Position numbers and translations under genes: made by a program. A model generated the notes under the pieces. That model was not told the DNA's origin. It saw only the letters and a program-made list of their open reading frames with translations, and searched no databases. From assembly GCA_943349945.1 (NCBI GenBank), contig CALQZS010000001.1, positions 213,739 to 277,738 on the forward strand: a stretch of DNA of 64,000 nucleotides. The letters run 5' to 3'. Of the stretch, positions 14,374-64,000 are shown one piece after another. Origin of the DNA: Candidatus Nomurabacteria bacterium. Its GTDB lineage: Bacteria; Patescibacteriota; Minisyncoccia; Phycocordibacterales; SBAW01. The stretch's first letter is position 1. Each line of letters starts with the position of its first letter.

Positions 14374-14426
14374 ATATTGTTTAGTGTAGCAGGCTGGCTA
14401 CTATTGAACACCCAACTATCCCCACC

Positions 14427-14912
14427 TTAGTCTTGTGCCGGAATGCGCTCTGTATCCCCCACCACTGGAAGCCCCGCATCTGCCCAGTGGTTTAGCCCAC
14501 CCTCGATACGCAGCAGGTTTTGGAATCCTTCTCGCTCTAAGTAGCCGTAGGCAACCCCGGCCAGGCGCCCCGTCGAGCAAATAAGTACTATTTTTTTGCC
14601 CTTTTTAGGCAATACGGTACGGTCGTCAAATAAGTTTGCTATAGGTTCGCTTATAGAGCCCTGCGCATGGGCAATATCATACTCTCTTTTGCTCCGCACA
14701 TCCAACAGCAAGTATGCATCAGGGTTTTTTTGATAGTCCTCCCAAAAAGCAACAGGGTCGACATCGTGCATTGTTGGCTCAACAAAGTTCATCCACTTAA
14801 GTGGGGTTAGGTAAATAACCGACGCCGCCCCCACCCCGCCCACCAATAGTCCAATAATTAGAAAAAGTGCTGCAGACCAGGTAAAAAGTGTTCGACGTAT
14901 CCACGTAAGCAT
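14427..14912 (-). CDS. Membrane-anchored rhodanese-domain sulfurtransferase
   Basis: 161 aa; N-terminal TM; catalytic loop CSTGRLAG (Cys-x2-Gly-x-Arg); lies 28 nt downstream of ycaO. Confidence 0.75.
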   Translation of the reverse strand: MLTWIRRTLFTWSAALFLIIGLLVGGVGAASVIYLTPLKWMNFVEPTMHDVDPVAFWEDYQKNPDAYLLLDVRSKREYDIAHAQGSISEPIANLFDDRTVLPKKGKKIVLICSTGRLAGVAYGYLEREGFQNLLRIEGGLNHWADAGLPVVGDTERIPAQD

Positions 14913-14940
14913 ACGAAAATTGTATCACGGACAAAAACTT

Positions 14941-45318: not shown

Positions 45319-46971
45319 ATGTCAATCATCCCTAGGGTGGGGACTATTTTAATAGCAGAACAAATATCGTATACAATAATTGATATGCAGTACGCTCGCA
45401 CTTGGGGTGCGCAGACGTCGATGCTAGCGCCGCATTTAGTCTCTGTGGAGACAGACCTCTCGCGCGGCCTCCACTCATTTACACTTGTTGGACTCCCCGA
45501 CAAAGCAGTTGAAGAATCGCGCGACAGAGTTGCCGCGGCAATAAAGCACTCTGGGTTTGAGTCGCCAAAATCGCGCAACCAAAAAATTGTCATATCGCTT
45601 GCACCGGCCGATCTTAAAAAAGAAGGGCCGCTTTTTGATTTACCAATCGCTCTTTCGTACTTACTTGCAGCAGATGACATACGCTTCGACCCCGAACCTT
45701 TTTTATTTATCGGTGAGCTTGCGCTCGACGGCACACTGCGCGCAGTGCGTGGCGTGTTACCACTTGTAGCCGAAGCAAAGCGGGTGGGGAAGCGTGCCGT
45801 GTTCGTCCCAGAAGCTAACGCCCGCGAAGCGGCACTTGTGGGCGGCATCGATATTTTTGGTGCAAAAAACTTAGGAGCAGTGATTGAACATCTTAATCAA
45901 AAACGTGTTGCCAAAAATGCAGCGGACAAAAAAGTAGCGAAAGAAAAACAGACACTCACACCAACACCACAGACCATGCTCGAGCCGAGCGTCATGCACA
46001 CGCAGTTTGCGTTTGAGGATATTCGAGGACAAGAGAGCGCAAAGCGCGCGGCAATTATTGCCGCAGCGGGCGGACACAACTTGGGACTCTCGGGCCCGCC
46101 GGGTACCGGCAAGACGATGCTCGCGCGAGCACTTGCGTCCATACTCCCACCACTCTCCTTTGACGAGATGCTTGAGGTCAACAGCATCCATTCCGTTGCT
46201 GGCGCACTCCATACCGACCTCTTAACCACGCGCCCATTTCGCTCGCCGCACCACACATCTTCGTACGTATCTATTGTCGGTGGCGGCGCAACACCCAGAC
46301 CAGGCGAGGCCACACTCGCACACCGCGGTGTTTTATTTTTAGACGAGTTCCCCGAGTTTGAGCGGCGTGTCATCGAGGCTCTGCGACAACCTCTTGAAGA
46401 CAGAGTCATCGCAGTGGCACGTGCAAAAGGGACTGCATATTTTCCTGCGCGCTTTACGTTGGTCGCCGCAATGAATCCGTGTCCATGCGGCAACTGGGGG
46501 CATCCAAACATTGAATGCATCTGCACCCCTATGAACCTCGAGAGGTACAGAAGAAAAATCTCTGGCCCCATCGCCGACCGCATCGACCTGTGGACAGGCA
46601 TGGGACCAGTCGACTTGACCGAGCTTGGCAAAAAAATAATCCGCGGCAGCGAGACAGACGCTGCGCGCAAAATAGTTTTGGCGGCGCGTGCGCGACAACA
46701 GGAGCGGTTTGCAAATACAGAACAAAAAAATACAAACACATCTGCAAAAACAAATAGCGACCTTTCGCCCAGAGAACTCGAAGAGCTAGTACCACTCACC
46801 ACAAGTGCACGTACCACACTAGAGCGGGCGGGCATGAGACTCAACCTGTCGCCCCGAGCATTCCATCGCGTGATTAAAGTTGCACGCACTATTGCAGACC
46901 TAGACGACTCACCCGACGTGAATGATTCTCACATTTTGGAAGCGTTGCAATATAGAGAGCGCAAGGGTTAG
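45319..46971 (+). CDS. YifB/ComM-family Mg-chelatase-like AAA+ ATPase
   Basis: 550 aa; Lon-like N-domain, Walker A GPPGTGKT, zinc-ribbon CPCG. Confidence 0.85.
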   Translation: MSIIPRVGTILIAEQISYTIIDMQYARTWGAQTSMLAPHLVSVETDLSRGLHSFTLVGLPDKAVEESRDRVAAAIKHSGFESPKSRNQKIVISLAPADLKKEGPLFDLPIALSYLLAADDIRFDPEPFLFIGELALDGTLRAVRGVLPLVAEAKRVGKRAVFVPEANAREAALVGGIDIFGAKNLGAVIEHLNQKRVAKNAADKKVAKEKQTLTPTPQTMLEPSVMHTQFAFEDIRGQESAKRAAIIAAAGGHNLGLSGPPGTGKTMLARALASILPPLSFDEMLEVNSIHSVAGALHTDLLTTRPFRSPHHTSSYVSIVGGGATPRPGEATLAHRGVLFLDEFPEFERRVIEALRQPLEDRVIAVARAKGTAYFPARFTLVAAMNPCPCGNWGHPNIECICTPMNLERYRRKISGPIADRIDLWTGMGPVDLTELGKKIIRGSETDAARKIVLAARARQQERFANTEQKNTNTSAKTNSDLSPRELEELVPLTTSARTTLERAGMRLNLSPRAFHRVIKVARTIADLDDSPDVNDSHILEALQYRERKG

Positions 46972-48867: not shown

Positions 48868-49887
48868 TTAGCGCGCTCCGACGCGTAGTGCGCCGAATGG
48901 GTTTTTGCTGCCGCGTACCTCAAAGTGGAGGTGCATACCGGTGGCTTTTCCTGTTTGCCCTACACCTGCGATTACTTGACCCTTCACCACGCTGCTACCC
49001 ACCGCAACTTGTACTGAGCCAGTCTTGGCATGTGCATAGAGTGTTTGCGTGCCGTTTGCGTGTTTTATAACGATGTAGTTTCCGTATCCGCCGTTCCATC
49101 CACCGTTGTCTCGTGCAACTACCACTACACCACTTGCCGCTGCAAGTATTGCAGTGCCTTCTTTAACACCGCCGATGTCGACGCCGTTAAACCCGTGGGA
49201 ACCTTGGGTTATGCGCCCACCGCTCACCGGCCAGCCATAGTAAGTTCCTGATGGGGCTGCTGTTGCGCCAGGGGTAGCAACCTTGGCCGGCGCCGCGGCT
49301 ATTACTCCATCTGGAATGATGATGGTGTCTCCAATGGCTAGTGAAGTATTTTCTGGAACGTTATTATACCTGGCAATATCGGCCACCGATGAGCTGTACT
49401 TTTTAGCCAAACTTGCCAGAGTGTCTCCTGAACCAACCTTATGCTGCACCCCTGTAATAGGCAGTATCACCAGCTCTTGCCCTGGATGCACCACACCACC
49501 CTTAATGTCGTTTGCCCACAAAATAGTATTTACCGAAACGCCAAACATCTCGGCAATGACCGAGAGCATGTCTCCCTCTTGCACCACATACACACTAATC
49601 TGCGACGCAGCGGGGCTCTCTATGTCGGACAAAGTGCCCGAAGGGCCATCTTGCGCCAACAGGGCAACCCCACCCACAAAAGAAATGTCGCCGCCACCCA
49701 CAGCAGGCCGCGGGTCTATATTGGTTGCTGGAGCAAGGGCCGGCAGTGTTTGAGAATTAAAGAGAGCACCCGACGCGTTGCTTGGAGAGGCTGTTTTGTG
49801 CAAAAACGCAGAAAAAAGGCTTGCATCAGCAAGCAGGGGGTATAAAAATACAAAAAAGCCGCCGCCAAGCATGACGCCTACAAACAA
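48868..49887 (-). CDS. LysM-domain M23-family peptidoglycan metallopeptidase
   Basis: Two LysM repeats (GDTLASLAKKYSSSVADIARYN); M23 motifs HxxxD and HLHFEV. Confidence 0.8.
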   Translation of the reverse strand: MFVGVMLGGGFFVFLYPLLADASLFSAFLHKTASPSNASGALFNSQTLPALAPATNIDPRPAVGGGDISFVGGVALLAQDGPSGTLSDIESPAASQISVYVVQEGDMLSVIAEMFGVSVNTILWANDIKGGVVHPGQELVILPITGVQHKVGSGDTLASLAKKYSSSVADIARYNNVPENTSLAIGDTIIIPDGVIAAAPAKVATPGATAAPSGTYYGWPVSGGRITQGSHGFNGVDIGGVKEGTAILAAASGVVVVARDNGGWNGGYGNYIVIKHANGTQTLYAHAKTGSVQVAVGSSVVKGQVIAGVGQTGKATGMHLHFEVRGSKNPFGALRVGAR

Positions 49888-50167: not shown

Positions 50168-52129
50168 ATGCCCGTGTGGATAGCTTTTGCACGCTCCAAA
50201 TTTAGCCTTGTCTGGTATAGTGTTTTAGTGACCGACTCTGCAAACCATCTTGCCCATCTAAATACTGCACAACAAAAAGCTGTTCGCGCAATAGATGGAC
50301 CGCTTCTTGTTCTTGCCGGAGCAGGGGCGGGGAAGACCAGGGTTATTGCCCACAGGATTTTGGAAATTGTGCGTCAGGGCACGGCGCCCGAGCGGATTTT
50401 GGCTATCACCTTTACCAATAAAGCAGCCGCCGAGATGCGCGAGCGAGTGTTGGGGCTTTTGCCAGCTGCCGGCAGGCCGCCATTTGTCTCGACATTCCAC
50501 TCGCTTGGACTCTCTATTATTAAAGAGAACGCGGCACTGTTGGGTTTTGCCAGGACACCAGCCATATATGACCGAAACGACTCTCTTCGCGAGATGAAGG
50601 CTGCGCTCAAACAACTTGGTGTCGAGGATACTGAACCCCGAGCAGCACTCAACACCATGTCCAAGCAAAAAGGACAGGGGGTGAGTGTGCACGATTTTGC
50701 TGCACAGGCGCATAGCTTCCATGACCGCACCACCGCATCCGCGTGGAGCCTGTACGAGCAAGCACTCCGTAAAGACGGCGCGGTGGACTTTGATGACCTT
50801 TTAGTGCGCGCGATGCAGCTGCTACGCGATAACGCGGCAGTGCGCACGCATTATCGAGAAAAGTGGTCGCATATACACATAGACGAATATCAAGACACCA
50901 ACCAGGTGCAGGCGCAGTTGGCAGGACTTTTGGTAGGGGACAAGCAAAATATTTGTGCCGTAGGGGACATTGATCAAACTATTTACGGCTGGCGAGGCGC
51001 CCTGATAGAAAACATGATCCATTTTGAACGCACGTTCCCTGGTGCGCAAACTGTTATTTTGGAAGAGAACTATCGATCGACGCAAAATATCTTGGCCGCC
51101 GCAAATGAGGTGATAGTAAAAAACCCAAACCGACCAGAGAAAAATCTCTTTACTAAAAACAAGGAGGGCGAGGCGCTTGGTCTGTATCAAGCATTCGACG
51201 AACTCGACGAGGCTGCGTTTGTGGCGCGCAAAATACAAGAGCTTCGTAAAGAGGGTGTCGCACCAAAAGATTTTTGTGTGTTGTACCGAGCAAACTTTCA
51301 ATCCCGCGCGCTAGAGGAAGCACTGCTCGCAAACAACATCCCGTACCAGGTTTTGGGTACGCGCTTTTTTGAACGCAAAGAAGTGAAGGATGCACTGTCC
51401 TTTATCCGCGCTGCCTTGTTTAGCACCCCCGCAGATATCGAGCGTATTACAAAAGCAGTACCATCGGGCATTGGGAAAGTAACCCTTACTAAAGTGCTTG
51501 AAGGCAAGGAAAACGAGCTTACCGGCGCGGTCAGAGAGAAGGTGGCAAAACTGCGCAATTTACTTGCGCGCATCCGCGAAAAAGCAGAGCAACTGAGCCC
51601 AGGAGAGTTGGTGCAGTTTGTTATCACCGAGTCGGGCATGGAGCGCTTGTGTAAGGAGGACAAAGCCGAAGGAGTAGAGCGGCTTGAGAACTTGCGCGAG
51701 CTGGGTAACCTTGCCGCCCGCTACAACACCCTGCCACAAGCAGAGGCGCTTGAAGCATTTTTGGAATCCACCTCGCTCCAAAGCGACCAAGACGAACTTA
51801 AAGAGGACGCAAACGCAGTGCGCATGATGACCGTGCATGCGTCCAAAGGACTTGAGTTCCCTTATGTATTTATAGTGGGACTTGAAGAAGGACTCTTTCC
51901 ATATTCCAGAGAGGGGGACAGCGCCAAAGAAGCACAGGAGGAGAGGCGACTGATGTACGTAGCTATTACCCGCGCAGAGAAAAAAGTATTTTTAACCTAT
52001 GCGTCCTATCGGACGGTGTTTGGCTCAAAAAACGCAACCTTTCCGTCGCAGTTTATATCCGACATACCGGACTACCTGCTTGAAGTAGAAAACCCCGAAA
52101 GACTGGGTCGCACTATTTACCTTGACTGA
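50168..52129 (+). CDS. UvrD/PcrA-family ATP-dependent DNA helicase
   Basis: Walker A LAGAGAGKTRV; helicase motifs throughout; ends overlapping the ksgA start. Confidence 0.85.
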   Translation: MPVWIAFARSKFSLVWYSVLVTDSANHLAHLNTAQQKAVRAIDGPLLVLAGAGAGKTRVIAHRILEIVRQGTAPERILAITFTNKAAAEMRERVLGLLPAAGRPPFVSTFHSLGLSIIKENAALLGFARTPAIYDRNDSLREMKAALKQLGVEDTEPRAALNTMSKQKGQGVSVHDFAAQAHSFHDRTTASAWSLYEQALRKDGAVDFDDLLVRAMQLLRDNAAVRTHYREKWSHIHIDEYQDTNQVQAQLAGLLVGDKQNICAVGDIDQTIYGWRGALIENMIHFERTFPGAQTVILEENYRSTQNILAAANEVIVKNPNRPEKNLFTKNKEGEALGLYQAFDELDEAAFVARKIQELRKEGVAPKDFCVLYRANFQSRALEEALLANNIPYQVLGTRFFERKEVKDALSFIRAALFSTPADIERITKAVPSGIGKVTLTKVLEGKENELTGAVREKVAKLRNLLARIREKAEQLSPGELVQFVITESGMERLCKEDKAEGVERLENLRELGNLAARYNTLPQAEALEAFLESTSLQSDQDELKEDANAVRMMTVHASKGLEFPYVFIVGLEEGLFPYSREGDSAKEAQEERRLMYVAITRAEKKVFLTYASYRTVFGSKNATFPSQFISDIPDYLLEVENPERLGRTIYLD

Positions 52130-52928
52130 TATGTATAAAAAGAAATCTCTCGGTCAACATTTTTTGCACAACCCGCACTATCTCGGGATGCTAGCTGACG
52201 CCGCAGATATACAAAAAAGAGACGCGGTAGTGGAAATTGGCCCCGGCGAAGGAGCGCTCACAAAAGTGCTGCTTGAGCGGGGAGCGCATGTTGTGGCGGT
52301 AGAAAAAGATACGCGACTTATCCCACTACTCTCTGAAAAATTTGCACAAGAAATAAAAAACGAGCAGCTAGAGGTTATTGAGGAAGATGCCTTGCGACTT
52401 AATACAGCAAGTCATTTGAAAAAACACGCAGGAAAATCGTCAAAAAAAGATACCTACAAAGTGGTAGGCAACATACCGTACTACATCACCGGTGCTTTGT
52501 TGCGCAAATATCTAACTGACACCAAGCAACCAGCAACGCTCGTTTTCTTAATACAAAAAGAAGTGGCAGAACGCATTGCGCGTAGCACAAAGGAAAGTCT
52601 TTTATCTCTCTCTATTAAGGCGTACGGTACGCCCACCTATATTAAAACCGTACCGCGCGGAGCATTTAACCCACCACCCGCAGTAGACTCTGCCATTTTG
52701 CTTGTCTCGAACATATCGCGCAAAAACTTTAAAAACAAAAAACACGAAGAGCGGTTTTTTACACTCCTACACGCTGGCTTTGCGCAAAAAAGAAAGCTCC
52801 TTAAAAGAAATATTGAAAAAGTGCTTGGGAGCGACACGGAAAAGGTTCTGCAAGACGCTGGTATCCCACTTAATGCCCGCGCAGAAGACGTGTCTTTGGC
52901 ACAGTGGCTCGCACTTACACTGAACTAA
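52122..52928 (+). CDS. rsmA: 16S rRNA (adenine1518/1519-N6) dimethyltransferase
   Basis: LGQHFL, VVEIGPGEGALT and VGNIPYYIT motifs. Confidence 0.9.
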   Translation: MTDMYKKKSLGQHFLHNPHYLGMLADAADIQKRDAVVEIGPGEGALTKVLLERGAHVVAVEKDTRLIPLLSEKFAQEIKNEQLEVIEEDALRLNTASHLKKHAGKSSKKDTYKVVGNIPYYITGALLRKYLTDTKQPATLVFLIQKEVAERIARSTKESLLSLSIKAYGTPTYIKTVPRGAFNPPPAVDSAILLVSNISRKNFKNKKHEERFFTLLHAGFAQKRKLLKRNIEKVLGSDTEKVLQDAGIPLNARAEDVSLAQWLALTLN

Positions 52929-54418
52929 ATAGGGGATGGTGCTGTTCCAAATCCGGGGATAGGAAGTATGGGCAGCCCTGCACCAACAAACAGCGGCCCT
53001 ACAAAACAAGGCACGGGCACGGGCGCTGCTTTACCCAAAATTTGGAAGCCAACCGGAGGAGGCATGCCCATGGTTACTAAGTTTGGCTTTGAGCCAGGCA
53101 TCCACATAATAGGGCCCGAGTAGGGAAGGCCACTTTTTGAAATCACCCAAAAAAGCACACCCGTGTTGCAGGGAATGTACGGCGGCGACACAATACCGCC
53201 AAAAGAAATACCCGTAAGCGGGCTCGAGGCCACACTACCTGCTGCTGCAGTAGTGCCGCTTGTTAAGAAACTAAGGCCCACTATCGCCGCAATACCAAGC
53301 ACGCCAACAGCTAAAATGCCTCCAATACCGCCACCTTCGCTGGAATTCTCGCTCGACGCATCTGAGTCAGAACCCGCACTAGCCCAAGTGTCATAGTCTC
53401 TTGCTGCTTGGTCTGCAAAAGGCACCACCACCTCAGCGCCGGGCACCCCAACTGTCTGGTAGATACCCTCGAACAAACCCTTGCGTATAGGGCCCCCGAC
53501 AAAAAAGAGGTTGTATTGGTCGGCACTGTCTATATTTGTAACCACTTCGACGTTGGGCGCTGCCACCAAAGAGCTGGACGCTGCTTGTATAGCCAAGCTA
53601 TTTCCACCCGAGGCTGCCCAAAGCAGCCCATCATCACTGACGTAACGCTCTATGGTTGTGAAGTTTTTGTTTAAAAATAGTACATATTTGCCCAAATCCC
53701 GCGATACGTGCACGTCGACATTAAACCCTTCGAGCGTTTTTTGGCCTTGAATATCGACCACATAGAGCCTGTCGGTACCCAAAATAGCCCCATTATGCGT
53801 CAACCGCGTCCGATAGACGTGTATTTTGCCCGGATAGTTGGTGCTGTAATAGAGCCATATCTCGCTACCCACCACCAACGCACTAGGCGCCCAGCCCCCG
53901 CGAGTATCGAGCCCGTTGTCTTGGTCTATAACTATGCCGCCGTCTACCCAGTCGACGCCGTCGGTACTGTACGCTTGCCCTATGCGATTATTGGTCTTAG
54001 CCAGGGTACTCGAAGCCGCATCGGTATTGGAAATAATACTGTAATACATGAGCAATCGGTTGGCGCTTGGGTCTGGCAACACCTCCGGGTCGGCAAGCTG
54101 GTGCCCTGCAACGCCAAAAACCGGCCGCGATTCTAGCCATCCGCCGGATTGATCATAAAAACTGACGTGGATTAGGCCAGAAGAGGCGTTTTTTGTAGGT
54201 TTGCCGCTGAACCACATCTTCCGTTGTCCAAAATCAGAGGACACAGTGGGCGACATGACGCTGTAGAACCCGCCCACAACCGGCACGGACACTTCTTGCG
54301 ACCAACTACCCACGGCGGCGAGTTGCTGCTGTGGCATAGTGAGCGCCGTAAGGGGAGCGGTCATCACCGTAAACACCGCAAGCACAAATGCGACGGCTTG
54401 ATTTAAAAATTCGGACAT
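52925..54418 (-). CDS. Secreted beta-propeller-like protein (possible GH43/GH130-like glycosidase fold) with TM and Pro/Gly-rich C-terminal tail
   Basis: Signal peptide; repeated blade-like W..G/YYS motifs; then TM GGIGGILAVGVLGIAAIVGL and a ~120-aa P/G-rich tail. Family call is tentative. Confidence 0.4.
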   Translation of the reverse strand: MSEFLNQAVAFVLAVFTVMTAPLTALTMPQQQLAAVGSWSQEVSVPVVGGFYSVMSPTVSSDFGQRKMWFSGKPTKNASSGLIHVSFYDQSGGWLESRPVFGVAGHQLADPEVLPDPSANRLLMYYSIISNTDAASSTLAKTNNRIGQAYSTDGVDWVDGGIVIDQDNGLDTRGGWAPSALVVGSEIWLYYSTNYPGKIHVYRTRLTHNGAILGTDRLYVVDIQGQKTLEGFNVDVHVSRDLGKYVLFLNKNFTTIERYVSDDGLLWAASGGNSLAIQAASSSLVAAPNVEVVTNIDSADQYNLFFVGGPIRKGLFEGIYQTVGVPGAEVVVPFADQAARDYDTWASAGSDSDASSENSSEGGGIGGILAVGVLGIAAIVGLSFLTSGTTAAAGSVASSPLTGISFGGIVSPPYIPCNTGVLFWVISKSGLPYSGPIMWMPGSKPNLVTMGMPPPVGFQILGKAAPVPVPCFVGPLFVGAGLPILPIPGFGTAPSPI

Positions 54419-54461: not shown

Positions 54462-55346
54462 ATGAGTGCGAGATATTTACCCAGTGCACAATTTAGCCTA
54501 TTTGTAGTGTCGTTGGCTATTGCTGGCGGGTTAGTGGTGGCCGCAAACTACTCGACCAAACCAAACACAGCCAACCTGGCAAGCATTACGCCGAGCCAAA
54601 ATCCTACGTATGACTGGCGCGCTGCACTTGGCGCCGTACAAACAGAAAGCGGTATAGAGGCACCCGGCCCCATAGATGCTGCAACCATAGACTCTTTGCG
54701 CGATGCAGCAAAAAACACATCGAGCCTCACCGACGCCGTGTCTCGTACACTGCTTATAAACCTAAGCAACGCCAAAGCACAAGGTCTGGGGAGCGATATA
54801 CCTACACAAAACCAACTAGTCGCAAGCGCAGTGGGGCAAATAGACGCTACGCAACAGGCGCGACTATACACCCGAGCCGACTTGACTGTGGTTGCCGACA
54901 CTTCTGATGCTCAAAAAGCATATGGCAACGCACTCGCAATCGTAATGAGCAAAAGTGGCGGACTTGGGTACGCAGAAACATTGATCGCTATAGATATGGC
55001 CACTGCAAAGAATAGCCAAGCAGAGCTCGAGCAGCTTCCATCTATTGCAACCGAGTATAGCGAGTTATCTAAAGCGCTACTTCGCATACCAGTACCACAA
55101 ACACTTTCACCTTTTCATCTTCAACTTGTAAACAACTTCCAAAAAATTGCCGGGGCATATACACCCATGGCGACAATACTCACGGACCCACTACGCGGAC
55201 TCTCGGCAGTTAAAGACTACCAAGCACTTACCCAAGAAACACTACTTGTGTTTATAAACATCGGACAAACATTACATAAAAACGGTATACTTTTTACTAA
55301 GGACGAGCCAGGGAGCGCTTGGGATGTTCTGGTGTCTGCACAATAA
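54462..55346 (+). CDS. Membrane-anchored hypothetical protein (first gene of the T4SS-like operon)
   Basis: 294 aa; N-terminal TM FSLFVVSLAIAGGLVVAA. Confidence 0.4.
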   Translation: MSARYLPSAQFSLFVVSLAIAGGLVVAANYSTKPNTANLASITPSQNPTYDWRAALGAVQTESGIEAPGPIDAATIDSLRDAAKNTSSLTDAVSRTLLINLSNAKAQGLGSDIPTQNQLVASAVGQIDATQQARLYTRADLTVVADTSDAQKAYGNALAIVMSKSGGLGYAETLIAIDMATAKNSQAELEQLPSIATEYSELSKALLRIPVPQTLSPFHLQLVNNFQKIAGAYTPMATILTDPLRGLSAVKDYQALTQETLLVFINIGQTLHKNGILFTKDEPGSAWDVLVSAQ

Positions 55347-55351
55347 ACCAC

Positions 55352-57652
55352 ATGGTAAAGAAGATATTTTATGTCGTACTCATTACTGCAGCGGTAGTGG
55401 GGATTGTCGCCCTTATTTGGTGGTTTTTTAATCGCGACACCACTCCAGCTCAGACAGGAAGCGGCACTTTTGGTTCTGGCCAAGACGCACCACAAAGTGG
55501 TAATGCTGTCGGCGGCACCCCTACAAACGTGGCGTTGCCTATAGAAGGACAAAATGTAGGACAAGGAGGATTAGGAAGCAGCCAGAGCATACCTGCAGGC
55601 ACCTACACTGTACGTACAGGAACCCTAGCGCGAGGAAGTTATACCCTTGCACCAGCAGAAAGCTTTGGCACGTATACGGTAACTTCTGTAAACGGGGGGC
55701 GGCTGGAAGCTGGCCAATACACCTTTGCCGCACCAAACCTAACCACCACATACGGAGTTATGTTGTCTCCAATGGGCACTTCGTCGAATGTATATACCAT
55801 TACACCTGGGCAGATACGGAGCAACATTGTAGACGGTATAGTGGGCACCTCGACCAATACAGGGAACATCGGTGTACCGGGTGTTACCTGGCTCTCGGGT
55901 ACTACCACAAACAACGGTACCACCGGTAACAATGCAGGCACAGTATTTAATCCCACAGGCATAAATCAGCTAAATAATGACACCCCAAGTGGCGGCGTAT
56001 TGCCAAATATAAGCGGCGGAGGGGGAGGCACCGGCTCACAAGGCGGACTGGGGCTAGGAGGAGCTTTGGTTGGCGCCGCAGTTGCGGGCGGTCTTAGTTG
56101 TGGAGCAGCAGAGGCACTTGCGTGGGCTGGTAAGGCTCTGGGAATTACTGAGAGCACTACACTGGGAGCTCCTGGAGTAGCACTTACAGTAGGAGGGGAG
56201 GGAATAGAACTTGGACTCACTCCAATATCGGTTTCGACCGTAAACAACGGACAAACAACGGTTCTTACGGGCACAAATGCTTTGCTGGGAGCAATTCTTA
56301 TTAAACTTGGTGGCGCTCATGGGGAACAAAAGGTGGACGATTCGATTAATACTTTTTGGAGTTGCCTCGCCCGAACCGTGGCGCGCATAGCACTCAACCA
56401 AATCACCAACAGCGTGGTCAACTGGATAAACTCGGGCTTTGGCGCAGACGGCGGCCCTGGGTCGGGCGGACCATCGTTTGTAACCAACCCTGAACGCTTT
56501 TTTACTAACCTGGCAGACAAAACGGCAGGGGAGTTTATCAAAGGCAGCTCGCTCTCGTTCCTATGTAGCCCATTCCAACTACAGATACGCATCGCCATAG
56601 CCAAAAGCTACGCCCAACGCAACGCGTACTCGTGCACGCTCACAGGAGTTACCAACAACATACGCAACTTTATGAACGGCAGCTTCAGCGCCGGAGGGTG
56701 GCCAGCCATGTTGTCGTACACGACCATGCCCACCAACAACCCGTACGGTGCATTTATGTATGCCGAAGCAGGCTTAAGCTACAGCGTACAAACAGCGCAA
56801 GGTGAGCAGCGCCGACAACTGTCGTTAGGTAACGGCTTCCTCGACTTTAAGCAAAAGAAAAACTGTCGCAACTCGTTTGTGCGTCCGGACGCATCAAGCG
56901 GCCAGTCGGTGAGCGAGGTGGACACAGGAAACGGCACCATGTACGAAAGTTGCGACATAGTGACCACCACCCCGGGCAATGTTATCGCCCAAGCAATAGG
57001 TGCAACCGAGAGCAGCACACTCGACCAGCTGAGTCTGGCAAAAAGCTTTGACGAGATAATCAGCGCACTTATCACCCAACTGATGACCCGCACACTCCAA
57101 GGCGGCCTCTTGAACCTGAGCGGGCAAGACGGGTATGCAAGCAACTTCTACTCTGCCGAAGAACTTGCTGCACAGCGCCAAGCGCAAGACTTCTTAGAGG
57201 AGCTACAAACAGACTCCAGTGTGGCACAAAATCTTGGGACAATTAAACAGGGGAGTATCCAAGACATCCAGAGCGCACAGCGCCGGTTGAGCGAGTTGCG
57301 CAACTGTTGGCTTGGTACAAGCGCGGCCGGAGCTGCAGAAAATGCTGCCGCAGCATCCAGCACCGTCGCCATGCTCGAGACACGGGTCGCATTCTATAAT
57401 GACCAAATACTCCGCATAAACGAAACCATTACCACATTGGTGGAATTCCAAAGCCGCACACTGTCGGCCGGCTCGCTAAGCGACCTAGAGGCGGTGCGAC
57501 GCGACCACAGCGCAGCCGCTGCACAAGGTAGACTCGTGTCATCGGTAGACATCACCACTGCGCAACAAGACCGCGCAACACTGCAAAGCCAGATGGCAAC
57601 CATAAACCAACAAACAACAGCAGGACTCACACAATGCAATGCATTTAGGTAA
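55352..57652 (+). CDS. Large membrane-anchored Gly/Thr/Asn-rich surface protein with C-terminal coiled coil (T4SS-operon member)
   Basis: N-terminal TM MVKKIFYVVLITAAVVGIVALIWWFF; low-complexity G/T region; coiled-coil C-terminus. Confidence 0.45.
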   Translation: MVKKIFYVVLITAAVVGIVALIWWFFNRDTTPAQTGSGTFGSGQDAPQSGNAVGGTPTNVALPIEGQNVGQGGLGSSQSIPAGTYTVRTGTLARGSYTLAPAESFGTYTVTSVNGGRLEAGQYTFAAPNLTTTYGVMLSPMGTSSNVYTITPGQIRSNIVDGIVGTSTNTGNIGVPGVTWLSGTTTNNGTTGNNAGTVFNPTGINQLNNDTPSGGVLPNISGGGGGTGSQGGLGLGGALVGAAVAGGLSCGAAEALAWAGKALGITESTTLGAPGVALTVGGEGIELGLTPISVSTVNNGQTTVLTGTNALLGAILIKLGGAHGEQKVDDSINTFWSCLARTVARIALNQITNSVVNWINSGFGADGGPGSGGPSFVTNPERFFTNLADKTAGEFIKGSSLSFLCSPFQLQIRIAIAKSYAQRNAYSCTLTGVTNNIRNFMNGSFSAGGWPAMLSYTTMPTNNPYGAFMYAEAGLSYSVQTAQGEQRRQLSLGNGFLDFKQKKNCRNSFVRPDASSGQSVSEVDTGNGTMYESCDIVTTTPGNVIAQAIGATESSTLDQLSLAKSFDEIISALITQLMTRTLQGGLLNLSGQDGYASNFYSAEELAAQRQAQDFLEELQTDSSVAQNLGTIKQGSIQDIQSAQRRLSELRNCWLGTSAAGAAENAAAASSTVAMLETRVAFYNDQILRINETITTLVEFQSRTLSAGSLSDLEAVRRDHSAAAAQGRLVSSVDITTAQQDRATLQSQMATINQQTTAGLTQCNAFR

Positions 57653-60455
57653 TTACATAGCCGCACAAAAACAGTTTCTTATAGTTGCTGCTTTTGTGCT
57701 GCTTTTTGGTGCAATCTCCTTTTTACCAACGCAAAATTGGACACCGAAAGTACAGGCGCAATTTACCGCTTACGAATCAGGAGAAGCTCAGCGCACTGGC
57801 CAAACACCCGGCGATGTGGCTGTTCAAAATCAGACAAAAAAAGAGGATCCTTTAAACAAAATAAGGAAAGAGGACAAGTGGTGCACCGAGGCAAGCACTT
57901 GTGTGTCTGGAATTATATATGTTTTCTCTGTTGGTTTGGGGAGCATGCTTGCCTATATGGGTAGCTCCGTACTCAATCTAGGTATCCAATTGTCGCTCCA
58001 AAGCGAGGCGTACTCACAATTGTTCCTTACCACGGGGTGGGCTGCGGCGCGAGACATCGCCAACATGCTCTTCATCTTTATCCTCATTTATATAGCCTTT
58101 ACCATCATATACAGCGCCGAGACAGCCAACACTATGAAGACGCTCGCTGCGGTTGTGGTAATGGCACTGCTTATTAACTTTAGTTTTTTTATTACGCGTG
58201 TCGTGGTCGACGCGGGCAATATCCTTGCGGTACAGTTTTATAATGCTATTGAAACTCCACAATTATCACAAACAGCTGCCAATAGTACACTTGCAGATGC
58301 AACAAATCGACTCGGTTTTTCTCCCGGGGACAAAAAAGACCTTACGTTTTATCTAATGGAGACAGTAAAGGTCCAAAATATTTTAAATGAAACTTCCTTT
58401 AAAAAGTTTACCGACCAAAACGGTTTCCTCACCAACCTTATAGTGCAAAGCACTGTCTATATTGTTCTTGGATGGGCATTCGCCATTATTGCGCTGACTT
58501 TTTTTGCAGTTGGGTTTAAATTTGTCCTACGCATTATTGTGCTGTGGTTTGTAATTATCGCCGCGCCATTGGCCTTTGCTATGCGCGCATTCGCCAGCAA
58601 TGACACCGCGCGCAAGTTCTACAACGAATGGCAGAGTGCGCTGCTTAAATTTTCGTTCTACCCAGCAGTCTTCCTCTTCATGTTCTTAATAATGAACTTT
58701 ATTATGCGCGAGATGGGTGGAGGGGGAGGTCTTATACCGGGTTTGTTTGAAGATTTGTCAAAAATCAGTGTCACGAACAACGACACTCTTGGTTTAGCTG
58801 CGCTCGGCGCCGCAATGGCACAGGTTATTATCCGCCTGGGCTTTGTGGTGGTGATGCTGTTGTTTGGACTCAAGTTAGCAGACCAAATTATGCTAAGCGG
58901 TAGCACCTTTGCCGAAAATTTTACCAAAAAAGCGAGCGAGAAGATGAAGGGGTTTGCATACCGAAACACTGCCGGCCGCGCTTTATATGGCACCAACAAA
59001 GCACTTGAGCGAAGCAAGTGGGCAAACAAACCCGGCGCCGTAGGATGGATTGGCACCAAATTGCGCAAACAGTCGTTTGCATTTGCAGACAAAAGTTACG
59101 GAGGCATGCGTTCGCGCGTAGGGGTGCTTAAAGATAAAAGTTCTGCTTTGGAAGAACGCAAGGGTTTGCTAGCAAAAATAACGAACAAAGAACGTGATGA
59201 TGCAAGGAAGGCGCGCATAAAAACAACGGTAGACAAATTAGCTCCAGAAACTCATGCATCGCTAACCATAGAAGATATTCGTCTTATAGAAAGTCTTACT
59301 AAGAAAGATTACGAGGCGTTAGGTGAAACAAATACCGCAAAAATAGCTAGTTATTCAACACCTAACACTCCTTATGAAAAATTCTGGAGCGATGGGAAAA
59401 CCCGCATGATAGGTGAGATTGACGCTTTTACGGATAATGGGAAGACCCAAATTCATGCATCTCGCGAATCGGCACTACAAGATGGCGAGGAAGAGGAATT
59501 TATTAGAAAAAAACGCGCTGAAAAAGAGGCGACTGAAAAGAAAGAGGCGGAAGATGCAAAAGCAGCGGAAAACAAAAAGCGCGCCATTAGGATGGCTTTA
59601 AACCGACCAGACTTTCTACCACCAGACAATACACCCCCATTCATTCCCCCGGGCACGAAAGAACCTAGACAACAAAACAGAGGCGGAAATTCTCAACCTC
59701 GACAGCGCATCTCTCGCCTCGCACGCCCAGATATTGCCGACAGGCTCTTGGAGAAGATTGATGCTGGTTGGGCAAATGTAAAACCACGAGAGTCTCGTGC
59801 AGCAGAGTTCACGAACCTCGACAAAGCGCTTGCGGGAGTCGCAGAAGTGGCCACACGTGCTCAGGCTCGGGCCGCAACACAACCCCCTGCAGCCCGCAGC
59901 CTATATATAAACCAGCCCGCCGACGCTACAACACAGACAAAAAATATCCCAATAGACACCACTCACAGCATGCCGTCGCGCGTGTCTCGTCTAGATCCTG
60001 CACACACAGAGCAACCAACAAATACAACACCAACTCCGCAAACTACTCCTATATCAACTCCCACCACCCCTAAAACGCCCGCACCTCAAACCAGTCTTGC
60101 TTCTTGGTGGAATGTTCCTAAAGACCCTGCAGCAGAGCAACTAAAAGCATTGCACGGTATCAAAAAAGAGCTTGAGGAGATGCGCGAGCATGCCGCAGAA
60201 ACAGTGCCACATAATAAAACAACTGAAGCGCCCGTAACCATAAATCAAACAGTGGTACAAGTTGGGAGCACACCACCCAAGACAATAACTCCAGAGGCAA
60301 AGGAGTTACTTGCGTCTATAGATAAAGGCGGCGTACCAGCATTTATGACCCAAAATCTGCGTCGCGTGCTGCAACAAAATGGCATCAAAAATAGTGACAT
60401 CTCGCAAAGACCTCTAAACGAGTTGCTTGAGCAGCTGCGCAAGTTGCAAGCATAA
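57639..60455 (+). CDS. VirB6/TrbL-like polytopic T4SS channel protein with ~480-aa hydrophilic C-terminal extension
   Basis: Multiple TM helices over ~450 aa in a TrbL-like arrangement; C-terminal K/E-rich then P/T-rich tail. Confidence 0.5.
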   Translation: MHLGNYIAAQKQFLIVAAFVLLFGAISFLPTQNWTPKVQAQFTAYESGEAQRTGQTPGDVAVQNQTKKEDPLNKIRKEDKWCTEASTCVSGIIYVFSVGLGSMLAYMGSSVLNLGIQLSLQSEAYSQLFLTTGWAAARDIANMLFIFILIYIAFTIIYSAETANTMKTLAAVVVMALLINFSFFITRVVVDAGNILAVQFYNAIETPQLSQTAANSTLADATNRLGFSPGDKKDLTFYLMETVKVQNILNETSFKKFTDQNGFLTNLIVQSTVYIVLGWAFAIIALTFFAVGFKFVLRIIVLWFVIIAAPLAFAMRAFASNDTARKFYNEWQSALLKFSFYPAVFLFMFLIMNFIMREMGGGGGLIPGLFEDLSKISVTNNDTLGLAALGAAMAQVIIRLGFVVVMLLFGLKLADQIMLSGSTFAENFTKKASEKMKGFAYRNTAGRALYGTNKALERSKWANKPGAVGWIGTKLRKQSFAFADKSYGGMRSRVGVLKDKSSALEERKGLLAKITNKERDDARKARIKTTVDKLAPETHASLTIEDIRLIESLTKKDYEALGETNTAKIASYSTPNTPYEKFWSDGKTRMIGEIDAFTDNGKTQIHASRESALQDGEEEEFIRKKRAEKEATEKKEAEDAKAAENKKRAIRMALNRPDFLPPDNTPPFIPPGTKEPRQQNRGGNSQPRQRISRLARPDIADRLLEKIDAGWANVKPRESRAAEFTNLDKALAGVAEVATRAQARAATQPPAARSLYINQPADATTQTKNIPIDTTHSMPSRVSRLDPAHTEQPTNTTPTPQTTPISTPTTPKTPAPQTSLASWWNVPKDPAAEQLKALHGIKKELEEMREHAAETVPHNKTTEAPVTINQTVVQVGSTPPKTITPEAKELLASIDKGGVPAFMTQNLRRVLQQNGIKNSDISQRPLNELLEQLRKLQA

Positions 60456-60492
60456 TCTGCTGCTATGGTAGAATATGCGTATATAACGCTGT

Positions 60493-60996
60493 ATGGAAGA
60501 AGCATTGGACGACAAAATTACAAAACGCCTTGCTGAGTTGCCCGCAGACGTGCGCCAAGCGGTCGAGTCGGTAGACATGGGGGAGAAAATACGCGCCATT
60601 GGCACACGCCACGGGCTCCACGTCGACCAGTTGGGCGCCCTAGAAGACGAGATAATGCTTGTTATGTTGGGATTTGCCGACCCAGGCGCCTTTACCGAGC
60701 GCCTTGAAGCAGGGCTGCACCTGTCTGCCGAGCAGGCCGCGCAAGTTACAGAAGAGGCGGTTGAGCAGTTTTTCCTCCCCATCCGCGAGTCTATGAAGCA
60801 TTTTATGGCTGCCCAGGCAGCGAGCCATACTTTGGAAGCACCGCACACAACAGAACCTGTTGCTGCGCCAAAGATGCCCGCAGCCGAGCAGATGCTCGCA
60901 GAAAAAACAGTGGTGGTACCACCCAAACCAGAAACGCCAAACACCGCACAAGTGCGCACCTACACAAAAGACCCGTACCGCGAGCCGATAGAGTAG
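60493..60996 (+). CDS. Hypothetical protein (T4SS-operon member)
   Basis: 167-aa ORF in operon; no motif recognised. Confidence 0.35.
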   Translation: MEEALDDKITKRLAELPADVRQAVESVDMGEKIRAIGTRHGLHVDQLGALEDEIMLVMLGFADPGAFTERLEAGLHLSAEQAAQVTEEAVEQFFLPIRESMKHFMAAQAASHTLEAPHTTEPVAAPKMPAAEQMLAEKTVVVPPKPETPNTAQVRTYTKDPYREPIE

Positions 60997-61048
60997 GGGT
61001 ACAACTTATCTTGGTCGCACCCCCATACCCCAGGTATACTAAGATACG

Positions 61049-61483
61049 ATGCAGTACCAAGTGCCTCAGTTTATTGAGTTGGAGGATAAAATATTTGGGC
61101 CACTTACGCTCAAGCAGTTTATCTATCTCGCTGGAGCTGGCGGTGTGTGCCTTATATTTTTCACGCTTCTACCTATATACCTCACCATCGTTCTGAGCGC
61201 ACCAGTTGTAGTATTTGCGCTTGCGCTTGCGTTTTACCAAATAAACGGCCGGCCATTTATTGTGGCGCTTGAGCACGGCATGTCCTACTTTTTTGGATCA
61301 AAGCTCTATTTGTGGAAGCAACGCGACCAAAGCCCGCAAAAAGCAGCTGCAAAACCAGCCAATACCCCTGTAGCGCTTGTACCAAAACTCTCTGAAAGCA
61401 AGCTCAAAGACTTGTCGTGGTCGCTCAACATCAAAGACCGCGCACAGGCGGGCATATCCAGCAATGACGACTTGGCGATATAA
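61049..61483 (+). CDS. VirB3/PrgI-like small two-TM protein
   Basis: 144 aa; two adjacent TM helices; position just upstream of virB4, as in Gram-positive conjugation loci. Confidence 0.45.
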   Translation: MQYQVPQFIELEDKIFGPLTLKQFIYLAGAGGVCLIFFTLLPIYLTIVLSAPVVVFALALAFYQINGRPFIVALEHGMSYFFGSKLYLWKQRDQSPQKAAAKPANTPVALVPKLSESKLKDLSWSLNIKDRAQAGISSNDDLAI

Positions 61484-61486
61484 CCT

Positions 61487-62155
61487 ATGGCAGACGAAAA
61501 AGTAAAAGCACAAGCAACACAAGACTTCGTACCTATTAAAGAAGTGCGGGACGGGGTTATTGTCCTCAAGAATGGCAGTTTGCGCATGTTGCTTATGGCG
61601 TCTTCCATCAACCTGGCGCTCAAGTCGCAAAACGAACAAGAGGCCATTATTGGGCAGTTTCAAAACTTTTTAAATTCCCTGGAATTTACGGTGCAGTTTT
61701 TTGTCGAGTCGCGCGACCTAGATATACGGCCGTATATAGCCCTTTTAGAAGACCGCTATGTTGCCGAGTTGGACGATTTGATGAAGATACAGATACGCGA
61801 ATACATTACGTTTATCAAAGACTTTACTGAGCGGTCAAACATTATGTCTAAAAACTTTTTTATCGTCGTACCCTACGACCCGGCAATAGTTGCGCCAGGC
61901 AGCGGGGTAGGGGGGATGTTGAGCGCACTACTACCATCCAAAGACGGGTCAAACGCGAACATAACCTCAGACACACAGTTCGAAGAGTACCGCACCCAGC
62001 TTGAGCAGCGTGTGGCAGTTATCGAGCAGGGCCTGGTGCGCACCGGGGTGCGCATTGCGCCGCTTGGCACCGAGGAGGTGATTGAGCTCTTTTATAAACT
62101 CTTTAACCCTGGCGAACTTGAGAAACCGCTCCAAGTAACCCAGGTTGTACAATAA
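61487..62155 (+). CDS. Hypothetical protein immediately upstream of virB4
   Basis: 222 aa; ends 5 nt before the virB4 ATG. Confidence 0.4.
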   Translation: MADEKVKAQATQDFVPIKEVRDGVIVLKNGSLRMLLMASSINLALKSQNEQEAIIGQFQNFLNSLEFTVQFFVESRDLDIRPYIALLEDRYVAELDDLMKIQIREYITFIKDFTERSNIMSKNFFIVVPYDPAIVAPGSGVGGMLSALLPSKDGSNANITSDTQFEEYRTQLEQRVAVIEQGLVRTGVRIAPLGTEEVIELFYKLFNPGELEKPLQVTQVVQ

Positions 62156-62160
62156 ACACT

Positions 62161-64000
62161 ATGTCTTTTCTTGATTTTTTAAAGGAAAAAAAGCCAGAGC
62201 TAAGTACAGCGCCCGCGGCATCCATCATGCCCGAACAAATATACAAGCAGGGCGTGCTTGAGCTCCAAGATGTTATCGCACCCTCTGCGCTCAAAATCAC
62301 TCCACGCGAGATAAACTTGGGCGACAAAATAGCTCGTACTTTTTTTGTGATGTCATATCCGCGCGTGCTGACCGATTCGTGGTTTGCGCCCATCATCAAC
62401 CTCGACCGCGTGCTCGACATATCTATCTTTGTGCACCCAATAGACTCGGCTGATATTCTTAAAAAATTCCAAAAAAAGGTGGCCGAGGTGCAGTCGCAGA
62501 TAGCCGCACGGGAAGAGAAGGGTTTGGTGCGCGACCCAATATTGGATACCGCATACAACGACTTGGAAGATCTGCGTGACCAACTACAACAAGCACAGGA
62601 GCGCATCTTTGACGTGGGTGTCTACATCACCGTGTATGGAGCATCCACCGAAGAGCTCGACAAAGCCGAGAGTGAGATAAAGTCTATGTTGGAGTCGCGA
62701 CTTATATACGTCAAACCAGCCCTATTCCAACAGAGCCAAGGGTTTAAAACGGCACTGCCGCTCGGGCAAGACGAATTGGCGGTCAATTCAAAGCTAAATT
62801 CGTCCCCACTATCGTCTATATTTCCCTTTGTTTCGTTTGACCTAACCTCCGACAAAGGAATTTTGTACGGCATCAACCGCCACAACGCGAGTTTGGTGTT
62901 GTTTGACCGCTTTAGCCTAGAAAACTACAACTCCGTTATCTTTGCTAAGTCGGGTTCGGGTAAGTCGTATGCAACCAAGCTCGAGATTTTGCGAACACTG
63001 ATGTTTGATACCGAGGTTATTGTTATCGACCCAGAACGCGAGTATGAGTTTTTGGCTCAAACAGTGGGTGGGCGGTACTTCAACATATCACTCAACTCCG
63101 AGCACCACATCAACCCGTTTGACTTGGCGGTGCCACGCGAAGACGAGAGTCCTGCGGACATCTTGCGCTCCAATATTGTGGCTTTGGTGGGGCTTTTTCG
63201 CATTATGCTTGGTGGCCTTACCCCCGAGGAGGACGCGATTATAGACAAAGCCATAACTGAAACGTACGCACTTAAAGACATCACTGTCGACAGCAACTTT
63301 GCCGAAATAGAACCGCCACTTTTGTCTGACTTCGAGATGGTGCTCTCGGGCATGGAGGGGAGTGAGTCGCTGACGCAACGCTTGTCGAAGTACACCAAGG
63401 GCACCTGGTCTGGGTTTATAAACCAAGCAACCAATGTCGACATAAACAAAAAGTTTGTCGTCTTTTCTGTCCGCGATATGGAAGACGATTTGAAGCCTGT
63501 CGCCATGTACCTTATTACCCATTATATATGGAATGCGGTACGCAAAAACCTTAAAAAACGCTTGCTTGTTATCGACGAGGCTTGGTGGATGATGAAGTCG
63601 GAAGACACTGCATCCTTCCTCTACAGCATGGCGAAGCGCGGCCGCAAGTACTACCTGGGGCTTGCGACTATCACCCAAGACGTTGACGACTTTTTGAAGT
63701 CGCCCTACGGCCTACCCATGATCACCAACTCGTCTATACAGATATTGCTTAAGCAGTCGCCTACAACCATAGACAACCTACAAAAAACATTTAACCTCTC
63801 GGACGAAGAAAAGTATTTGCTTTTGGAGTCTGATGTGGGGGAGGGGATCTTTTTTGCAGGCTTAAAACACGTCGCTATTAAGGTTATAGCCTCCTACACG
63901 GAAGATCAGATAATCACCTCTGACCCGTCGCAAGTGCTTGCACTGCGCAAACAGCGTGCGGATATTGCAAACGCACCCACACCACCCACACCTGCGGTAC
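62161..64000 (+). CDS. Type IV secretion ATPase VirB4/TrbE/PrgJ family (5' part; continues past window end)
   Basis: Own translation from ATG 62161: Walker A FAKSGSGKS, Walker B LLVIDEAWW, plus ...RGRKYYLGLATITQD. Absent from the track because it is truncated by the window edge. Confidence 0.85.
   Translation, partial: MSFLDFLKEKKPELSTAPAASIMPEQIYKQGVLELQDVIAPSALKITPREINLGDKIARTFFVMSYPRVLTDSWFAPIINLDRVLDISIFVHPIDSADILKKFQKKVAEVQSQIAAREEKGLVRDPILDTAYNDLEDLRDQLQQAQERIFDVGVYITVYGASTEELDKAESEIKSMLESRLIYVKPALFQQSQGFKTALPLGQDELAVNSKLNSSPLSSIFPFVSFDLTSDKGILYGINRHNASLVLFDRFSLENYNSVIFAKSGSGKSYATKLEILRTLMFDTEVIVIDPEREYEFLAQTVGGRYFNISLNSEHHINPFDLAVPREDESPADILRSNIVALVGLFRIMLGGLTPEEDAIIDKAITETYALKDITVDSNFAEIEPPLLSDFEMVLSGMEGSESLTQRLSKYTKGTWSGFINQATNVDINKKFVVFSVRDMEDDLKPVAMYLITHYIWNAVRKNLKKRLLVIDEAWWMMKSEDTASFLYSMAKRGRKYYLGLATITQDVDDFLKSPYGLPMITNSSIQILLKQSPTTIDNLQKTFNLSDEEKYLLLESDVGEGIFFAGLKHVAIKVIASYTEDQIITSDPSQVLALRKQRADIANAPTPPTPAV

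Follow-up and report, generated by a model that had tools for sequence, protein, structure and literature searches.

A stretch of 64,000 nucleotides (nt) from a contig of a Candidatus Nomurabacteria bacterium (hereafter, the window) ends in an operon for a type IV secretion system (T4SS) that we interpret as a chromosomal, vertically inherited, relaxase-free machine of Patescibacteria, derived from monoderm conjugation machinery (mating-pair formation class FATA, MPF-FATA), no longer mobile, and serving exchange with a host rather than plasmid conjugation (probability of roughly 0.85). This interpretation draws on the gene content of the locus, the homologies of the encoded proteins, the fold of the VirB6 component, synteny and strong conservation across related genomes, and the absence of mobility genes nearby. 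Publications of 2023-2025 have described this system, which most of the ultra-small Patescibacteria have beside the replication origin, and the locus in the window is a textbook instance of it rather than a new kind of system.

A preliminary description of this DNA had proposed seven or more tightly spaced or overlapping plus-strand genes, and seven plus-strand open reading frames (ORFs) indeed run from position 54462 to the end of the window, with intergenic gaps of 5, -14, 37, 52, 3 and 5 nt. The order proposed at the time, with two hypothetical proteins preceding PrgI, had to be corrected to a hypothetical protein of 167 amino acids (aa), PrgI, a 222-aa protein and VirB4. The statement that the window ends inside virB4 is true, but the cut falls one codon short of the stop (613 of the 614 aa are included), leaving the gene essentially complete. 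When the 151-kb public metagenome contig was followed beyond the window, as had been recommended, three more plus-strand genes came into view at window-equivalent ~64023-68002 (p567, a PF18895 pilin and p412), followed by jag, yidC and rnpA (on the minus strand, in one near-identical contig) and then by dnaA and dnaN. The operon accordingly consists of ten genes over ~13.5 kb, namely those at 54462-64000 and the three just past the window:

54462-55346, plus strand: p294, 294 aa, first gene of the operon, bitopic with a transmembrane (TM) segment at residues 6-32
55352-57652, plus strand: p766, an N-terminally anchored Gly/Thr-rich protein, 766 aa from the ATG that gene callers choose or 777 aa from an upstream TTG
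57639-60455, plus strand: extended VirB6/TrbL-like polytopic channel subunit, 938 aa, with a TM domain at ~1-430 and a tail of ~500 aa
60493-60996, plus strand: p167, an acidic soluble protein of 167 aa without TM segments, encoded between VirB6 and PrgI
61049-61483, plus strand: PrgI/VirB3-like small membrane protein, 144 aa, with a hydrophobic hairpin at residues 23-66
61487-62155, plus strand: TrsD/TraD-like soluble protein, 222 aa, the separately encoded N-terminal domain of VirB4
62161-64000, plus strand: VirB4 ATPase, 614 aa, with the stop codon at window-equivalent 64003-64005, just outside the window
window-equivalent 64023-65726 (L001 12537-14240), plus strand: p567, 567 aa, a fusion gene after VirB4
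window-equivalent 65723-66754 (L001 14237-15268), plus strand: VirB2-like pilin, 343 aa, PF18895
third gene past the window, ending at window-equivalent ~68002, plus strand: p412, 412 aa, probably TolB-like

The central component is a VirB4-family ATPase that exceeds the cutoff of the NCBIfam model conju_CD1110 (8e-117, 391 bits against a cutoff of 325) and matches Pfam P-loop_TraG (3e-27); CD1110 and the Mycoplasma VirB4 are the best NCBIfam models for this protein. The Walker A (AKSGSGKS at residue 262) and Walker B (LLVIDEAW at residue 468) motifs, reported as intact from the outset, are so, and both are kept in all 51 full-length orthologues. The closest plasmid-encoded VirB4 proteins (28-36% identity) all come from monoderms (Firmicutes and Actinobacteria), which appears to be in line with a monoderm, MPF-FATA ancestry. 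Given the ~90% identity to the VirB4 proteins of ~60 Parcubacteria species, membership of the window protein in the Patescibacteria T4SS clade is very likely.

As judged from profile alignments, VirB4 is split between an N-domain gene and an ATPase gene because the two ORFs align to separate parts of the single, 752-position CD1110 VirB4 profile: the ATPase covers only positions 179-733, and the 222-aa ORF covers positions 2-116. The latter, initially taken for a hypothetical protein, matches NCBIfam TrsD (1.5e-9) and carries the precomputed annotation Pfam PF26593 (TraC-like). A frameshift artefact was considered as the source of the split and rejected: TrsD is a separate ORF in 52 of 52 related loci, and the two genes occur in all three relative frames, so the split goes back to an ancestor and does not stem from a sequencing frameshift. 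Two genes upstream of VirB4, the 144-aa protein with its hydrophobic hairpin matches Pfam PF12666 PrgI (2.2e-10, 41.3 bits, cutoff 27), in agreement with its original description as a two-TM PrgI/VirB3-like protein.

The 938-aa protein contains ~8 TM segments followed by a tail of ~500 aa rich in A, T, K, E, P and R, which bears out the polytopic architecture with a charged, Pro/Thr-rich tail noticed at first. The expected match to TrbL/VirB6 profiles was obtained through homologues and fold rather than directly. Among 42 homologues, eight, 35-67% identical over the TM domain, reach Pfam TrbL/VirB6 (best 5e-11), and three reach the NCBIfam Mycoplasma conjugal-transfer family (4e-7); the protein further shows the VirB6 fold, a polytopic helical bundle as in TrwI, to which its sequence identity is only 13%. 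On the strength of these homologies and the predicted fold, we assign it to the 'extended' VirB6 proteins that a 2025 review (PMC12857230) describes. The tail is not conserved in sequence, with only ~44% of the protein aligning across species. The 60 residues that follow the last TM segment include 13 K+R against 3 D+E, a charge bias that under the positive-inside rule favours a cytoplasmic tail over a surface domain; of the two large surface proteins postulated in the preliminary description, p766 is thus plausibly extracytoplasmic and VirB6 probably does not qualify.

The tail also differs between close strains. The DNA of the window and of one such strain (L003) is ~94% identical, and the TrsD and VirB4 proteins are 100% identical, whereas short segments of the VirB6 tail (59195-59739) and of p766 (56115-56348) have no detectable DNA similarity to L003, with 12-54% amino acid identity in 50-residue bins; ksgA and p294 hold smaller replaced segments as well. 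A compensated frameshift was examined as the cause of the divergence in the VirB6 tail and rejected, as the DNA there has no similarity, and the divergent VirB6-tail and p766 segments are cassette-like replacements.

The second gene past the window encodes a 343-aa protein with a match to T4SS_pilin PF18895 (4.6e-9, 36.7 bits, cutoff 26.6) and a weak one to TrbC/VirB2 (0.014). Its TM segments lie at residues 8-26, 198-235 and 243-269, and the protein displays both the signal peptide and the two-TM domain of VirB2/TrbC pilins. It is unusually long for a pilin, consisting of the signal peptide, a Cys-rich and Gly/Thr-rich region of ~170 aa, the PF18895 two-TM domain (~198-269) and a Cys-containing tail of ~75 aa; the lengths of its orthologues vary from 169 to 794 aa. 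It is the single pilin gene in the window and its extension.

None of the operon proteins matches VirB7, VirB9 or VirB10 in Pfam and NCBIfam, and the affinity of VirB4, its TrsD and PrgI partners and the lack of an outer-membrane core jointly place the system in the MPF-FATA class. The locus resembles the MPF-FATA systems of Firmicutes (pGO1/pSK41 Trs, pIP501 Tra, pCF10 Prg, CTn2 CD1110) in that VirB4 scores above the CD1110 cutoff, VirB3 is of the PrgI type, VirB6 is polytopic, outer-membrane core proteins are missing from both and, as in pGO1 and pIP501, a TrsD/TraD-like gene lies just upstream of VirB4. In contrast, the Firmicutes systems reside on plasmids or integrative conjugative elements (ICEs) together with a relaxase, a type IV coupling protein (T4CP), a VirB1-type hydrolase, VirB8-like proteins and surface adhesins, and have no VirB2 pilins, whereas the window locus is chromosomal and immobile, includes a VirB2-like pilin and has no DNA-processing genes nearby. 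Compared with R388 Trw and Agrobacterium VirB (MPF-T), the locus lacks VirB7, VirB9, VirB10 and VirB11, VirB5 was not detected, and VirB6 carries the ~500-aa tail.

A scan of one genome per species of the Genome Taxonomy Database (GTDB) detected 252 loci with VirB6 relatives, the best 80 of which (L010-L089) were compared with sixteen proteins of the region using tblastn. Wherever the contig is long enough, the gene order uvrD-ksgA-p294-p766-VirB6-p167-PrgI-TrsD-VirB4-p567-pilin-p412-jag-yidC-dnaA is constant, with jag and yidC reversed. We detected p294 in 71 of the 80 loci (~43% identity), p766 in 77, p167 in 71 (~35%) and PrgI in 67 (~66%), with uvrD and ksgA collinear in 64-65. A Kaiserbacteria contig contains the same block, with p766 again beside VirB6, in the same wider neighbourhood (PNPase, DksA-like, ComM, LysM-M23). 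The homologues are labelled Candidatus Adlerbacteria, Paceibacterota or Parcubacteria, or have generic Patescibacteria/Minisyncoccia names, and identical copies of the window proteins occur in two metagenome-assembled genomes at NCBI; this copy of the locus is the Parcubacteria/Paceibacteria arrangement from an Adlerbacteria-like freshwater genome.

The rates of evolution differ sharply along the block. Median identity to the window protein is 90% for VirB4 (~60 species), 77% for TrsD and 66% for PrgI, against 64% for UvrD, 62% for YidC, 61% for KsgA and 58% for Jag; the envelope proteins and p167 are at 35-47%. The ATPase core is therefore more constrained than its housekeeping neighbours. 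Such identities indicate strong purifying selection on this core, which fits an indispensable function and excludes a decaying element.

Mobility genes were sought by Pfam annotation of every called gene at contig positions 7.9-88.5 kb (~80 kb of the genome), and no relaxase, VirD4/TcpA or mobile-element integrase was detected in this segment. Repeat and tandem-repeat searches returned no flanking direct repeats, no large inverted repeats and nothing att-like or oriT-like. Thus, the initial observation that no relaxase, VirD4 or oriT is visible in the window extends to this larger region, and the flanking relaxase, VirD4 and integrase that had been named as marks of an ordinary ICE are absent from it. 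The GC content is steady at the borders of the operon, without a compositional break. The sole tyrosine recombinase (window ~36737-37657), which has the N- and C-terminal domain pair of these enzymes and which we read as a probable XerC/D type, lies ~17 kb away from the operon, with S15, PNPase, ComM and other genes in between. Apart from the operon, the genes in the window and within 8.5 kb of either end are housekeeping genes, including PGK, TIM, PilB, NusA, trigger factor, ClpP, RNase Y, PNPase, S15, ComM, UvrD and KsgA, with RecJ, ComEC, S12, S7 and EF-G upstream. The relaxase, coupling protein, integrase and att repeats of an ICE or a conjugative plasmid are all missing here, and the ICE hypothesis was rejected on context and synteny.

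The system matches a published clade. A survey of 3,035 Patescibacteria genomes (Quinonero-Coronel et al. 2025, Microb Genom, PMC12102498) identified VirB4 in 2,417 of them, nearly always in one clade nested in MPF-FATA, with TrsD, PrgI/VirB3, VirB6 and VirB2-like pilins (including PF18895) encoded near virB4; in Paceibacteria, the locus adjoins dnaA, dnaN, rnpA, ksgA and rpmH. The same study reported VirB1-like candidates with LysM/M23 domains, and its VirB4 trees show almost no exchange between classes. The window locus agrees with this system in its host, in the clustering of TrsD, PrgI/VirB3, VirB4, VirB6 and a PF18895 pilin, in the lack of a nearby relaxase or T4CP, in its chromosomal position beside dnaA, dnaN, rnpA and ksgA, and in its monoderm MPF-FATA affinity, and nothing essential differs. 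What the present comparison adds is that, across 80 genomes, p294, p766, p167, p567 and p412 equal the recognised components in collinearity. Instead of a pilin array, the window genome has one pilin gene, which carries long extensions, and in its lineage p567 is fused whereas most relatives have two separate genes. The 2025 review mentioned above considers the Patescibacteria systems a distinct newcomer to the T4SS superfamily. Context, synteny and this published clade together support the early suggestion of a chromosomal T4SS that is used for something other than plasmid transfer.

The functional evidence comes from Southlakia epibionticum, in which transposon sequencing showed T4SS genes, including those for PrgI, the TrsD-like protein, VirB4, the VirB6-like proteins and pilins, to be essential for epibiotic growth (Wang et al. 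2023, Cell, PMC10633639); that cluster also lacks recognisable coupling and relaxase proteins. The Southlakia ML1 locus (SEML1_0006-0019, low locus tags) shares with the window the order of large VirB6-like protein(s), PrgI, TrsD-like protein and VirB4 (612 aa in Southlakia) and the PF18895 pilins. Southlakia, a member of Saccharimonadia, has two VirB6-like giants, an NTF2-like (VirB8-like) protein and a six-pilin array, compared to one VirB6, one pilin and no recognised NTF2 protein in the window locus, and essentiality is demonstrated only in Southlakia. A 2026 preprint reports tubular structures, maybe T4SS pili, at a parasite-host interface.

Several observations weigh against our interpretation. 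The essentiality data come from Saccharimonadia, a different class from Parcubacteria. The putative VirB6 has no direct match to Pfam TrbL (PF04610) and indeed no Pfam hit at E<=1, either over its full length or with residues 1-487 alone, and its family profile retrieves from the PDB sequences no VirB6 but only coiled-coil and low-complexity noise. The operon has no recognised VirB8- or VirB1-like component, and p294, p766, p167, p567 and p412 are linked to the machine by no more than their position, orientation and membrane topology. As the entire neighbourhood is syntenic, housekeeping genes included, synteny alone is a weak argument for these five proteins. Finally, VirD4 homologues are reported from 2,918 Patescibacteria genomes, mostly far from virB4 (PMC12102498).

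Among the alternatives, a dedicated machine for DNA uptake (competence), akin to Helicobacter ComB or archaeal Ced, by which DNA of the host or the environment would be taken in as a source of nucleotides, survives best and is nevertheless very unlikely. Such a role would be compatible with the lack of a relaxase and a T4CP, as in ComB, and the authors of PMC12102498 favour, in their discussion, a system that imports DNA or other macromolecules. The VirB4 matches to the archaeal DNA-import ATPases CedB and CedD in NCBIfam are far under the cutoffs, at only 38 and 19 bits against 700 and 600. Furthermore, the same contig encodes a classical competence route, with a PilB-type T2SSE ATPase (window 3391-5136, minus strand) beside an 822-aa CARDB-like protein, ComM (window 45319-46971) and a ComEC-type competence channel (L091 13991-15463), and therefore a DNA-uptake/type IV pilus route separate from the T4SS. 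Transformation of Southlakia requires comEC, but this gene, unlike the essential T4SS, is dispensable.

We consider it very unlikely that the system is conjugative after all, employing a distant VirD4-type coupling protein and an unrecognised relaxase for the transfer of chromosomal or plasmid DNA between Patescibacteria or to the host. The ancestry of the machine is conjugative, as CD1110-type VirB4, TrsD and PrgI attest, and the gene survey spans only ~80 kb of a genome from a phylum with widespread VirD4 homologues; the relaxases reported for Patescibacteria number 109, in 103 genomes (PMC12102498). Conversely, a relaxase, a T4CP and an oriT-like repeat are all absent between ~46 kb upstream and 8.5 kb downstream of the first operon gene, the position of the locus between housekeeping genes is fixed in 80 species, the VirB4 trees show little movement between classes, and the Southlakia t4cp homologue is non-essential whereas the T4SS genes are essential (PMC12102498). 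A decaying remnant of an integrated conjugative element, with no working machine, could account for the relaxase, T4CP, VirB1 and VirB8 missing from the locus and for VirB4 being split in two ORFs, but is hardly credible given that all ORFs are intact, the Walker motifs are universally kept, the separation of TrsD from VirB4 is ancestral, the conservation of VirB4 exceeds that of the adjoining housekeeping genes, the gene order persists across 80 species and in Kaiserbacteria, and neither an integrase nor an att-like repeat nor a compositional anomaly was found at the borders.

For a host-exchange T4SS as favoured here, a monoderm-type system domesticated into core machinery of the cell, a scheme of assembly, pilus, substrate and host interaction can be outlined from knowledge of T4SS families. 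VirB4 and its separately encoded, TrsD-like N-domain would dock on PrgI/VirB3 and the extended VirB6 in the cytoplasmic membrane, and VirB4 would power the extraction and polymerisation of the 343-aa VirB2-like pilin. The membrane-anchored p294, p766, p567 fusion and p412 probably form the wall-spanning or host-contacting part, and p167, soluble and without TM segments, is probably a fifth extra member of the machine. Through the resulting pilus or channel, the cell would exchange macromolecules with its host bacterium on contact, rather than conjugate plasmids.

Membership of these five proteins in the machine appears probable because of their co-orientation, tight spacing or overlap, envelope topology (p167, being soluble, excepted) and conserved position. 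In Pfam and NCBIfam, p294, p766, VirB6, p167, p567 and p412 themselves had no match above threshold, PADLOC produced no matches, and neither VirB8 (NTF2-like) nor VirB1 (lytic transglycosylase/CHAP) was matched by p294, p167, p567 or p412 in Pfam, NCBIfam or PDB-profile searches. For p294, the PDB-profile search was likewise empty; its homologues are all hypothetical proteins of ~295 aa, and its relatives fall only within its own family. Profile searches similarly yielded no family for p167.

As originally noted, p766 is Gly/Thr-rich (Gly 13%, Thr 11%) and membrane-anchored; it has one N-terminal TM segment, and its length, given as 767 aa, is 766 or 777 aa depending on the start codon. Its C-terminal half is conserved and contains Cys, and there is a long coiled coil at the C-terminus. 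An AlphaFold2 model (mean pLDDT, the per-residue confidence score, of 61) is confident only for the TM helix (2-27), a small beta-sandwich (83-157), a beta-sheet and the coiled coil (600-765, pLDDT >90), and models the conserved middle part poorly. Foldseek with this model returned generic coiled coils only, with no specific PDB fold; in particular, there was no match to VirB5/TrwJ, so that a role of p766 as a VirB5-like stalk or tip protein is unsupported. The profile of the family retrieved only coiled-coil or low-complexity noise from the PDB sequences. With E<=1e-3, a profile search yielded 5028 representatives of clusters formed at 50% identity, 2089 of which reach E<=1e-30, and Pfam contains no model for the family; p766 is a member of a large uncharacterised Parcubacteria family. 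The shorter, common form of this family is ~500-550 aa, and some homologues contain PG_binding_1, Big_2 or PKD domains in the variable N-terminal part.

The p567 protein joins the products of two genes, one a Gly-rich polytopic N-terminal part (~220 aa), the other a seemingly beta-rich C-terminal part (~345 aa); besides the window lineage, the fusion is found in a few others (L010, L037, L053, L063, L071, L075). In the p412 family, 6 of 35 members show PD40 repeats, and sub-threshold TolB hits are consistent in the profile search against PDB sequences; p412 is probably a membrane-anchored TolB-like beta-propeller.

The left border of the operon consists of the following genes:

52925-54418, minus strand: p497, a variable insert between ksgA and the operon
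50168-52928, plus strand: uvrD-like helicase and ksgA (rRNA adenine dimethylase), identified with Pfam, the conserved housekeeping border
48868-49872, minus strand: LysM + M23 peptidase, identified with Pfam, a conserved neighbour

The p497 gene (497 aa) is convergent with ksgA (4-nt overlap), divergent from p294 (43-nt gap) and present in only 4 of the 80 related loci. It encodes an N-terminal TM segment, a region with sub-threshold matches to GH32/GH43 propellers, an acidic Ser-rich linker, a second TM segment and a Pro/Gly/Cys-rich tail, and looks like a lineage-specific insertion into an otherwise fixed block rather than a conserved part of the system. The LysM-M23 gene is divergent and upstream of uvrD in 53 of 55 related loci; speculatively, the peptidase could stand in for the VirB1-type wall hydrolase, or it is merely a conserved neighbour.

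The operon is transcribed towards dnaA (window-equivalent ~69462), and jag, yidC and rnpA point away. It would be head-on to replication if oriC is beside dnaA, which is awkward for an argument from high expression near the origin; the GC skew is negative across the window and around dnaA is too weak to place oriC or decide on the head-on orientation. A scan for sigma-70 promoters and terminators was uninformative, with fewer sites than, or no more than, in shuffled sequence. Unrelated to the T4SS, the minus strand at 14427-17195 encodes a 471-aa YcaO-domain protein together with a rhodanese-domain protein and a protein of 291 aa that has no annotation, although the genome is otherwise minimal.

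The Kaiserbacteria locus (L090) encodes, between PrgI and TrsD (14917-15315), a four-helix-bundle protein resembling bAvd and the intervening-sequence protein of 23S rRNA genes. bAvd is a type of accessory protein of diversity-generating retroelements. No reverse transcriptase was seen within 10 kb in this locus. Its intergenic regions at 1797-2329, 14349-14473, 14879-16094 and 20717-20759 hold arrays of the heptamer CGAA(G/T)TA followed by its reverse complement, which could form hairpins.

Much of bacterial diversity belongs to Patescibacteria, which have a minimal metabolism and live attached to other microbes, and the T4SS is among the few machines shown to be essential for this attached lifestyle, in one Saccharibacterium only. 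The locus described here is a clean, complete example from Parcubacteria, and the comparison with its relatives defines a fixed block of 10-11 genes in which the ATPase core evolves more slowly than the neighbouring housekeeping genes. The five uncharacterised, mostly membrane-anchored proteins of the block are candidates for the missing structural parts. We also entertain, tentatively and as a possibility somewhat short of even odds, that these five are integral, lineage-specific structural components that replace VirB8, VirB1, VirB5 and the adhesins, which would make the Parcubacteria T4SS a structurally new subtype. If so, this system would possess its own wall-spanning scaffold and host-contact module, and host specificity would explain why the cassettes in p766 and the VirB6 tail vary between strains.

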